Positions 5,657-10,556 of a DNA stretch of 32,000 nt are shown piece after piece. The first letter of the stretch is position 1, and each line of letters begins with the position of its first letter. A program made the translations under genes and the position numbers. The DNA comes from an uncultured archaeon (lineage in GTDB: Archaea > Asgardarchaeota > Thorarchaeia > Thorarchaeales > Thorarchaeaceae). The notes beneath the pieces were generated by a model. The model was not told the DNA's origin. It did not search any database and was given only the letters and a program-made list of their open reading frames with translations. Location of the stretch: the NCBI GenBank assembly GCA_964354495.1, contig CAYHAA010000001.1, forward strand, positions 457,049 through 489,048, in the 5' to 3' direction.

Positions 5657-7081
5657 CTAGGTTATGCCATGTTGGTCCCCTCGTATTCGACGACTTAGAT
5701 TCAACCTGACTTCCGCGATCCTCTCTGCTGCTCGGCTCTTCTTCGGCCAGAACTCCCTAATCTCATCGAAGCCATGAACATCCCAATAGAGCGGGCATGC
5801 TCCGTAGCAATACGCGAAGTGTTCGCACTCCTTGCACCCCTGAGGCGTGAAATCCTTGCCTCTCCAGAACCTGCTCGCCCTATTGTACCATACCTTCTCA
5901 AATCCTTCATTCAGGAGGTTTCCAACAGGTTCGCTGAAACTTGAACACGGCAGTAGGCCGCCTTCGGCATCCACTGAGATGAGACCATCACAACACGCAC
6001 AGCTCTTGGCTCCCAGTCCACTTGCGATTGGGTTGAAGAGACAGACTGGAGTAGGCGCGTACCATACGAATTGAATTCCCTTCTTGCTTGCCCTGTGCTT
6101 CACGCGTTTCACAATCTCCCCGATTTCGGAATATTTGATCTGCAACTCCTCGCGCAACAATGCGGCAGTGCCCGTGTAGATCACCATATTCATGCTGAAG
6201 TATGAGAGGTTCAATTCATCAGCCAAAAAATCGACAAGGTCCTCTAGTCTGTCAAGATTCGGACGGCAGATGGTTGAGTTGCAGTGAGTATAGATGTCTG
6301 TTTCTCGCAGGTTCTTGACTCCCTGAATCGTCTGTTCGAATGCGCCGGGAACACTGACGATATGATCGTGTGTCTTTGCATCTGGACCTTCAATTGAGAC
6401 CTGTGCACTGTTCAGACCCGCTTTAACGAGCTTTTTCACAAACTCCTTGTCGCTGCATCGCCGGCCATTTGTAATTAGATTGACTCGGAGCCCTTTCGTC
6501 CTCCCATACGCGATCAACTCGAACAGATCATCGCGGAGGGTGGGCTCTCCTCCCGTGAAGGAGAGACTGGGCGCCTTAGCGTCATCTGCTATAATATCGA
6601 TGACTCTCTTTACTTCCTCTGTTGTCATCTCGTTTGTTTTTCTATAGGGCGAGAACGCATAGCAGAACCTGCAGGCATTGTTGCAGCGATAGGTGAGAGC
6701 AATCTCACTCAGGACGGGGTACTTGATTTCATGCGTCCCGAATGGTACGATTTTGGCAGTCTTGTATGAGTAGATATTCTGATTTCCTGAGACCATGTTT
6801 CTCAGGTCATCTACAAATGAGGCCAGGTCATTCAGAACTACCTGTCTATCAGCGCCTAGGTCGACAAAATGGCTGACGAGCTCCTCGATGCTCTTACCCT
6901 CGAAGAGAAGCCTCAGCATCCGCATGGCTGTCTCGTTCAGGTTCATAACCTTATTCGGTCGCAGGATCAAAAGATTGTCCTCGGGCCGCGGATAGAAGTA
7001 GTCCTTGACTTCTAGTATGAACTCAGGAATCCAAGCGAGGTCCTCAATGGCGTAGTCATAGTGCGGAATCTGTTGAAACAC
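5657..7081 (-). CDS. Radical SAM/SPASM protein with N-terminal PqqD/RRE-like domain
   Basis: CNNACRFC (6662-6685), FTGGEPTLR, ITNG and VSIEG. SPASM cysteines CACC..G....C and CKECEHFAYCYGACP. N-terminal LILRPNKVMNLNETAMRML...SIEELV...DLASFVDDL is PqqD-like. Confidence 0.9.
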   Translation of the reverse strand: MFQQIPHYDYAIEDLAWIPEFILEVKDYFYPRPEDNLLILRPNKVMNLNETAMRMLRLLFEGKSIEELVSHFVDLGADRQVVLNDLASFVDDLRNMVSGNQNIYSYKTAKIVPFGTHEIKYPVLSEIALTYRCNNACRFCYAFSPYRKTNEMTTEEVKRVIDIIADDAKAPSLSFTGGEPTLRDDLFELIAYGRTKGLRVNLITNGRRCSDKEFVKKLVKAGLNSAQVSIEGPDAKTHDHIVSVPGAFEQTIQGVKNLRETDIYTHCNSTICRPNLDRLEDLVDFLADELNLSYFSMNMVIYTGTAALLREELQIKYSEIGEIVKRVKHRASKKGIQFVWYAPTPVCLFNPIASGLGAKSCACCDGLISVDAEGGLLPCSSFSEPVGNLLNEGFEKVWYNRASRFWRGKDFTPQGCKECEHFAYCYGACPLYWDVHGFDEIREFWPKKSRAAERIAEVRLNLSRRIRGDQHGIT

Positions 7082-7212
7082 TTCTATCTCGCTCTCGTTG
7101 AGTTCCTATCATCTTAAGCATTCGGTTCTGATGAAGTGCACGCCCAAGAATCTGAAAGGCTTAAGTATTCCCAGTCTTCTGTTAGAATCAGCGTTGTCGA
7201 GGAGTGTGTTCA

Positions 7213-9800: not shown

Positions 9801-10556
9801 ATGCCAAGACCTCATACAACGATCTTCCATGTCAGTGATGTCCATGTTGGCGAAGTTGGAGTCACGCTCGACGATCTGAGAATGATTCTCGACCGCATTG
9901 AGAAAAAAGCAGCGAATGTGTCGTCACCCTTGCTTGTCGTAACAGGTGACCTCACAACTGAGGGTCTACGCGAGGAGTTCGAAGGGTTCTCTTCTGCGCT
10001 GGAAGGATTCTCGGTGCCCCACGTTATCATTCCCGGAAATCACGATGAGCGAAACTACGGCTCAGCAGTCTTCGAGGAGTTCTTTGGAGGTCGGTTCAAG
10101 ACCTATCAGACTGAAAACATCGCAATCTACGCTGCAGACAGTGCAGAGCCTGACAACGACGCAGGGCATGTTGGCCGTGTCAAGTACAATGAAATGCGTG
10201 ATTTCTTCAATAGTTCCAAAGAGAAGGTGCGGATATTTGCGCTTCATCACCACTTGGTTCCTGTACCGCACACAGGGAGAGAACAGAACGTTGTTGAGGA
10301 CGCCGGTGATGTACTAGCGGTTCTTGACACTGCAAATTGCTCTATGGTTCTAAGTGGCCATCGCCATGTTCCATGGATATGGAGACTCGGCGAGATGGTC
10401 ATCTGCAATACCGGAACTCTTCTTTCAAGAAGAGTGCGGGGCGCGACAACTCAACTATACAGTCGACTCGAACTAACGAAGGAAGAAGCCATCATTAGTC
10501 TATGTTACAAAGATGCTACTGAGCGAGTCTTTGCAAGAGCACCACTCAGAGCGTAA
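9801..10556 (+). CDS. Calcineurin-like metallophosphoesterase (Icc/CpdA-like)
   Basis: Motifs SDVH, GDLT..G, PGNHD, LHHH and SGHRH. ATG immediately follows the upstream TAG. Confidence 0.9.
   Translation: MPRPHTTIFHVSDVHVGEVGVTLDDLRMILDRIEKKAANVSSPLLVVTGDLTTEGLREEFEGFSSALEGFSVPHVIIPGNHDERNYGSAVFEEFFGGRFKTYQTENIAIYAADSAEPDNDAGHVGRVKYNEMRDFFNSSKEKVRIFALHHHLVPVPHTGREQNVVEDAGDVLAVLDTANCSMVLSGHRHVPWIWRLGEMVICNTGTLLSRRVRGATTQLYSRLELTKEEAIISLCYKDATERVFARAPLRA

Follow-up and report, generated by a model that had tools for sequence, protein, structure and literature searches.

A radical SAM/SPASM enzyme and a membrane protein with a periodic Cys-His tail: a likely maturase-substrate pair in archaea and bacteria

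The enzyme and the tailed membrane protein

We analyzed a 32,000-nucleotide stretch of DNA from an uncultured archaeon of the Thorarchaeaceae (called the window, at its full length) and focused on two divergently oriented genes within it. One encodes a 474-amino acid (aa) radical S-adenosylmethionine (SAM)/SPASM enzyme (5657–7081, minus strand), and the other a 708-aa membrane protein that ends in a repetitive Cys-His tail (7674–9800, plus strand). A metallophosphoesterase gene follows the latter (9801–10556, plus strand). An earlier interpretation made from the letters and a list of open reading frames (ORFs) alone, the sequence-only reading, had called these three genes and raised the possibility that the enzyme acts on the tail; the ORF table confirmed all three. 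It also shows no Cys-rich small ORF near the locus, in agreement with the earlier statement that no small precursor gene was apparent nearby. The gap between the enzyme and membrane protein genes, given before as about 600 bp, does measure 592 bp but is not empty: it holds a conserved gene for a 131-aa protein (7213–7608, plus strand). The translational coupling described for the tail gene and the phosphoesterase gene holds insofar as the ATG of the latter (9801) comes directly after the TAG stop of the former, but the two do not overlap.

The enzyme has three recognizable parts. Its N-terminus matches Pfam PqqD (30.9 bits, cut-off 23.4; aa 39–95), its core matches Pfam Radical_SAM (96.8 bits), and its C-terminus matches Pfam SPASM at a score marginally below the cut-off (21.2 versus 21.5 bits; aa 364–420). 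In an alignment of the window enzyme with 16 relatives (alignment A4), the CX3CX2C motif of the radical SAM cluster (C133, C137 and C140; 6662–6685, minus strand) is invariant, and so are seven Cys residues between positions 347 and 429 (C347, C361, C379, C416, C419, C425 and C429; 5789–6043, minus strand), which as a set indicate a full SPASM domain. An AlphaFold2 (AF2) model of the enzyme, with a mean predicted local distance difference test score (pLDDT) of 84.8, contains the fold of a RiPP recognition element (RRE; RiPP, ribosomally synthesized and post-translationally modified peptide) at aa 30–97, made of three strands (30–32, 37–41 and 44–48) followed by three helices (50–60, 65–74 and 79–97). 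Combining the Pfam match and the model, we place this PqqD-like peptide-recognition domain at aa ~29–97 (6791–6997, minus strand). The best solved matches to the enzyme, by both sequence profile and fold, were SkfB, SuiB and CteB, and the SuiB alignment (PDB profile) covers aa 22–430, from the RRE through the end of the SPASM domain; anSME was also among the fold matches. The domain matches, the alignment and the model thus bear out the description of a radical SAM/SPASM enzyme with a PqqD-like N-terminus. With its CX3CX2C motif, seven-Cys SPASM domain and predicted N-terminal RRE, the protein appears to belong to the superfamily of RRE-dependent radical SAM/SPASM maturases. No NCBIfam model reached its cut-off with the enzyme; the top matches, below cut-off, were AhbD and NirJ2.

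The membrane protein begins with a hydrophobic stretch (aa 1–30) that serves as an N-terminal signal segment and has a single transmembrane (TM) helix at aa ~373–392 (8790–8849, plus strand), placed by hydropathy and modeled by AF2 as a helix at 373–397. Both features agree with the signal peptide and single TM segment proposed before. The 15 residues that precede the TM helix contain no Lys or Arg, and three such residues follow it, a charge pattern that, like the hydropathy, fits the cytoplasmic tail of the sequence-only reading. By this topology the tail lies in the cytoplasm, and would thus be reachable for an oxygen-sensitive iron-sulfur enzyme. The AF2 model of the protein has a pLDDT of 69 overall and shows a beta ectodomain (30–365), of which the first beta-sandwich (30–250) is at about 90 and the second beta domain is less confident. 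On the other side of the membrane, a cytoplasmic domain (430–545) is folded with confidence (85–91), and the C-terminal end (583–708) has low confidence, with low-confidence helices predicted in the tail. In the AlphaFold DB, the top fold matches are DUF2207 proteins. The DUF2207 profile itself (PF09972, cut-off 24.4 bits) did not match the window protein at an E-value of 0.01; it was found in homologues, with a score of 26.8 bits for P0169. No NCBIfam model matched the membrane protein. As a separate observation, the top PDB folds for the ectodomain (7764–8783) were human and yeast ribophorin I (oligosaccharyltransferase subunit 1; E-value 7e-8), followed by the N-domains of M1 aminopeptidases; these matches have low TM-scores and may reflect a generic beta-sandwich likeness.

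Conservation of the tail and its linkage to the enzyme

Of the 12 Cys residues in the membrane protein, 11 are within the last 49 residues, where they occur together with nine His residues. This segment contains seven CHSA units, punctuated by units that contain Val, and ends in VSGGFR. The tail gene was present in 45 Thorarchaeota genomes in which the tail DNA (the last 50 codons; 9648–9797, plus strand) had 35 distinct versions, 64–97% identical to that of the window, and the encoded peptide was nearly invariant; the 11-Cys, four-periodic (CHSA)n tail reported before is real. Relative to the window, the 50 tail codons had 1233 synonymous and 12 non-synonymous differences in these genomes, compared to 1025 synonymous and 529 non-synonymous differences in the 50 codons preceding the tail. 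The tail is under extreme purifying selection, and because so few of the differences are non-synonymous, every residue is constrained, not the Cys and His residues alone. Conservation of the tail is far beyond chance.

The same grammar was found in a wider set. Among 151 distinct C-termini, the median content was 11 Cys and 9 His, and the spacing between successive Cys residues was four in 1142 of 1442 intervals. The most frequent unit was CHSA (918 occurrences), followed by CHDA (129), CVHDA (97) and CV (51), and the tails end in CVS plus two to four residues. There are invariant columns across the tail in the family alignment (alignment A1). The punctuation by Val-containing units is common to tails from Thorarchaeota and Chloroflexota, which suggests that the tail has a defined overall structure rather than being a loose repeat.

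The enzyme and the tail protein are inherited together. The names of close homologues assign the organism to Thorarchaeota. Among 61 related genomes, the two genes are divergent neighbors in nearly all those that belong to the same family as the window, and neither gene is present in three genomes of this family. Three distant Asgard genomes likewise have the pair side by side; in them the enzyme is only 31–45% identical to that of the window and the membrane protein ends either in CHSA units and GGWG or in (CA)n-GGGR. Chloroflexota have enzyme homologues that are about 50% identical, and the gene immediately upstream of these encodes a 583–597-aa protein with a like layout and a CHSA/CVHDA tail. 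In a pattern scan covering one genome per species, at least 517 species genomes contained a relative of the tail protein. The carriers among the matches listed include Thorarchaeota, Nitrososphaerota, Thermoproteota and Bathyarchaeia among the archaea, and Chloroflexota, Spirochaetota, Armatimonadota, Myxococcota, Sumerlaeota and Bacillota among the bacteria. Co-occurrence of the enzyme with Cys-tailed proteins, which had been set beforehand as a test of the proposal, was found in archaea and in at least 10 bacterial lineages. The earlier expectation that such a system would be unusual for an archaeon was not borne out, because bacteria widely carry it as well.

We quantified the linkage using 80 loci, 72 of which had enough flanking sequence to be judged. 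The enzyme gene was no more than 7 kb from the tail gene in 68 of these 72 loci. In one of the other four, an insertion places the enzyme gene about 7.5 kb away, and in the remaining three genomes it is encoded elsewhere. The bacterial enzyme gene lies directly 3' of the tail gene, with a start that is usually within a few bases of the tail gene stop and often overlaps it. In an even set of 151 genomes of the class Anaerolineae, 43 had both genes, 6 had the enzyme only, 2 had the tail protein only, and 100 had neither. Three of the six enzymes without a partner are at contig ends, and one is accompanied by a (CA)n tail that the profile missed. Overall, the pair was kept through at least four gene orders and in both prokaryotic domains, and the pairing of enzyme and tail protein is not due to chance. 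Kin genomes are not independent, and the linkage counts therefore overstate the number of events.

One candidate for a stand-alone tail peptide was found and rejected: a 46-aa tail-only ORF in an Anaerolineae genome is a remnant beside an insertion of about 7 kb that splits the cassette. At locus L150 (6584–9828; G105 contig 45), the tail gene is separated from the enzyme gene by about 7 kb of inserted, foreign-looking genes, and the edge of the insertion carries a duplicated fragment of the tail coding sequence.

There are two types of tail. The second, (CA)n-GGGR, was found in Asgard genomes and Anaerolineae next to enzymes that are about 31–34% identical to that of the window, which confirms the mention of such tails beside similar enzymes in the sequence-only reading. 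A maximum-likelihood tree of 44 enzymes is divided, with support of 100/100, into clade A, containing 36 enzymes with CHSA tails (including the window enzyme), and clade B, containing 8 enzymes. Clade B consists of enzymes with (CA)n-GGGR tails and two (from loci L049 and L147) that have no tail gene or Cys-rich ORF nearby. The two tail types are split by enzyme clade, so the type of enzyme follows the type of tail. The Thorarchaeota enzymes form one clade, which groups weakly (81/34) with bacterial enzymes whose tails end in VSGG. Two Promethearchaeota proteins have hybrid tails, with CHSA/CHSN units followed by CACACACAGGGW.

Clade-B loci have additional features of their own. The enzymes are followed by a conserved protein of about 235–270 aa (L048:5777–6535, L144:119–904, L049:8144–8848 and L147:5566–6381), and the L049 copy has a glycine motif like that of class I methyltransferases. 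Upstream of the tail gene, clade-B loci encode a small zinc-ribbon protein with EEPKW or EDVKW at its end.

A proposed maturation of the tail and its alternatives

The RRE is a domain whose known role is the binding of peptide substrates, and SPASM enzymes encoded beside Cys-periodic peptides, such as SkfB, CteB and PapB, form thioether crosslinks between a Cys sulfur and a carbon atom of a residue close by. These properties are the basis for our proposal that the enzyme crosslinks the tail. We think it fairly probable that the enzyme and the membrane protein are a dedicated maturase-substrate pair in which the Cys-His tail is modified. The DUF2207-like beta-sandwich domains of the membrane protein would face the outside and its C-terminal part the cytoplasm, where the RRE of the enzyme would engage this C-terminal region. 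Modification of the strictly periodic tail would then be carried out by the radical SAM and SPASM clusters. The likeliest chemistry would be a series of short Cys-derived thioether crosslinks of the sactionine or ranthionine type, one per four-residue unit, and the product would probably stay on the membrane protein and act there as a rigid redox- or metal-binding unit. A more specific version of this proposal, which we regard as possible but rather doubtful, is that the matured tail is never released and that the fixed, multiply crosslinked Cys/His module is a membrane-tethered protein-derived cofactor or a metal or redox wire. It would work with a membrane-anchored zinc-ribbon protein and, in bacteria, with a coiled-coil protein (both described below).

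To our knowledge, RiPP-type radical SAM chemistry occurs almost only on small, disposable precursor peptides. Here, such machinery is associated with the tail of a conserved membrane protein of large size, an arrangement present in hundreds of archaeal and bacterial species. If the proposal is correct, it would define a new protein modification and offer a first entry point to the function of part of the DUF2207 family. If, in addition, the matured tail is never released, the system would represent a new class of in-place protein maturation, found in Asgard and TACK archaea and at least 10 bacterial lineages. The spread over two domains and the matching subtypes of enzyme and tail make this a clean case for maturase-substrate co-evolution.

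Several points weigh against the proposal. Alignment A1 contains no leader-like segment upstream of the repeat that is conserved across the whole family. A complex prediction for the enzyme, tail residues 589–708, three 4Fe-4S clusters and SAM gave a score of 0.02, which is no verdict either way. The linkage counts are also inflated by genes shared among kin, as noted above. Finally, a strongly constrained Cys/His repeat would also be expected of a metal-binding module that needs no enzyme.

This last point is the core of the main rival, which we consider unlikely overall: that the tail is an unmodified Cys/His module binding metal or iron-sulfur clusters (like a metallothionein or Csp), or a redox relay, and that the enzyme is linked to it in some other way. 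For example, the enzyme could dock on the tail at the membrane, or could take electrons or clusters from the tail while it acts on another substrate, such as a lipid or small molecule. The 11 Cys and 9 His residues at i/i+4 spacing, with every residue constrained, fit such a module, as do the low-confidence helices predicted in the tail and the fact that the inconclusive complex prediction showed no enzyme-tail interface. Some SPASM enzymes do act on non-peptide substrates, Tes being one, although the Tes score here (80 bits) is far below the cut-off. Against this rival, the enzyme carries an RRE and is closest in fold to peptide maturases, its clades switch together with the sequence type of the tail, and no other candidate substrate gene is shared across lineages.

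If the enzyme does act on the tail, the membrane protein could alternatively be a true RiPP precursor, in which the modified tail is cleaved off as a small Cys-crosslinked peptide that is released or exported, while the remainder of the protein serves as a very long leader or scaffold. The tail does resemble ranthipeptide-like Cys-periodic cores, and there are candidate peptidase-type genes near some cassettes: 16 bacterial loci encode an InhA-like MAM protein, and a DUF885-like HExxH protein is encoded near Thorarchaeota cassettes. But no protease or transporter is shared across lineages, the only stand-alone tail ORF is the 46-aa remnant at the side of an insertion, and the ectodomain and cytoplasmic domain are conserved and confidently folded, unlike a disposable leader. 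We consider release of the tail improbable. Still less likely, and already disfavored, is an unrelated target such as heme chemistry of the AhbD or NirJ type or an unannotated small peptide, with synteny but no functional connection: AhbD and NirJ2 are the best NCBIfam matches, but the AhbD score (TIGR04545; 142–153 bits versus a cut-off of 500) comes from the core only (profile positions 6–202), the locus has no Cys-rich small ORFs, and the linkage holds across two domains of life and several gene orders. Inspection of the ORF table and the neighborhoods also revealed no other small precursor and no heme, pyrroloquinoline quinone (PQQ) or mycofactocin genes beside the loci, either of which the sequence-only reading had named as grounds for abandoning the idea.

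The proposed maturase-substrate pair resembles several known systems without belonging to a defined family, as far as the sequence comparisons indicate. The N-terminal RRE, CX3CX2C motif and seven-Cys SPASM domain are as in the SuiB, SkfB, CteB/SCIFF and PapB/freyrasin maturases, and, as with these maturases, the proposed substrate is a short stretch with periodic Cys residues; PapB likewise forms one small ring for each repeat. The window enzyme is nevertheless well below the cut-offs for PapB (NF047865; 86.2 versus 340 bits) and StsB (99 versus 625 bits). Unlike the 30–60-aa precursors of RiPP maturases, the proposed substrate is the last 50 residues of a 580–970-aa membrane protein. There are SPASM enzymes that act on Cys residues of a folded or large protein, namely anSME (on sulfatases) and QhpD (on QhpC). 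In contrast to the window enzyme, they have no RRE, and they modify a single site or make a few crosslinks in a soluble enzyme subunit; we know of no action by either on the repeat tail of a membrane protein.

The CXXX-repeat systems, which were defined in silico (TIGR04115, TIGR04117 'Syntroph_Cxxx' and PF27846), are similar in that a radical SAM/SPASM enzyme is encoded beside a target with a Cys at every fourth residue. They differ in the target, here a DUF2207-like membrane protein of large size. With the CXXX-repeat maturase model (TIGR04115, cut-off 350), the window enzyme reaches 22 bits, and the CXXX-repeat target model (TIGR04117, cut-off 50 bits) gave no match at the tail gene at E-values up to 10 and none with hmmscan. 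PF27846 gave weak matches, restricted to some homologues of the tail protein. The membrane proteins of TIGR04222 (cut-off 43 bits) had no match in the genome at E-values up to 10.

In the HXS antiphage system, the radical SAM enzymes HxsB and HxsC mature HxsA, an exported protein effector with His-Xaa-Ser repeats and a peptidoglycan-binding domain (PMC13128918). HxsA is the nearest experimental precedent for a repeat protein matured by radical SAM enzymes, and the window pair is like it in this respect but differs in repeats, enzymes and location. The window enzyme scores 106.7 bits with HxsC (TIGR03977, cut-off 267.9), and the tail repeat is C-H-S-A, not H-x-S. The membrane protein shares a signal peptide, beta ectodomain, TM helix and low-complexity C-terminal tail with DUF2207 membrane proteins, such as SMU.243 of S. 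mutans (PMC10457818). It differs from them in its Cys-His tail and in being paired with a dedicated radical SAM enzyme instead of LemA, the usual partner (PMC12631010). A DUF2207 protein that appears in a paper on thiohistidine is an unrelated neighbor. Full-text literature searches (DUF2207 with radical SAM, CXXX repeat, and SPASM with membrane protein) found no description of the system, which is probably undescribed and would chemically modify the tail of a whole protein.

Neighboring genes and the bacterial cassette

In bacteria and TACK archaea, the core is a four-gene cassette encoding the tail protein, the enzyme, a coiled-coil protein of about 400 aa and a zinc-ribbon protein of about 170 aa. 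The last of these has two TM helices, a winged-helix-like segment and the zinc ribbon. The window contains a protein of the same layout (3163–3873, plus strand) that matched the cassette family with hhalign over the N-terminal 106 columns (probability 93%, E-value 3.5e-7) and is encoded in synteny in 14 Thorarchaeota loci. Its zinc-ribbon end gave a weak hidden Markov model match (E-value 2.5e-3), and the profile has a better match elsewhere in the genome. We conclude that it is probably the counterpart of the zinc-ribbon cassette protein. The coiled-coil partner was not found in the genome of the window. Two proteins considered as its relatives, a 411-aa protein of the window and a 329-aa protein of the Bacillota-type cassette, were unrelated to it on comparison.

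The 131-aa protein encoded between the two core genes is present in 18 Thorarchaeota loci and is 65–69% identical in other Thorarchaeota genera. It has one bacterial homologue, encoded directly upstream of a tail gene (L132:5790–6185), and had no family match in NCBIfam or Pfam and no Atlas lead. The calcineurin-like metallophosphoesterase that abuts the tail gene (Pfam Metallophos, 56 bits) lies downstream of it in 15 of 24 Thorarchaeota loci, and is missing from locus L052 and from all cassettes outside the Thorarchaeota. Because it is limited to Thorarchaeota, and to only some of their loci, we rejected it as a core component and regard it as an accessory neighbor. The 411-aa protein (11020–12255, plus strand) is encoded downstream of the tail gene or phosphoesterase gene, in synteny in 19 Thorarchaeota loci. 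It has a HEYEH motif of the HExxH type and Atlas features pointing to a DUF885-like protein (score 0.96), with no Pfam or PDB match, and may be a metallopeptidase.

Nothing in the analysis pointed to a role in defense, and PADLOC found no system match at the window. The enzyme had only generic matches to viperin (pVip) radical SAM proteins, and the phosphoesterase had one weak match. Two bacterial cassettes directly adjoin defense-type genes (L062:5143–6465 and 4529–5086; L060:3486–6685), which encode an AAA_15/AAA_21 ATPase with a DUF4276 protein (PARIS-like) and a TIR protein with an AAA_22 protein. Two examples do not suffice to describe the cassette as a defense-island resident.

The remaining neighbors in the window look unrelated to the system. 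They encode two RIO kinases, a D-serine dehydratase-like enzyme, a DUF6159 membrane protein, two Usp proteins and a pyridoxal phosphate enzyme. The RIO-domain kinase genes are in tandem and overlap (651–2298, plus strand; Pfam RIO1, 115 and 122 bits). The DUF6159 match is to a multi-TM protein (12361–13740, minus strand), which also has a sub-threshold choline-transporter-like match (23.9 versus 26.9 bits).

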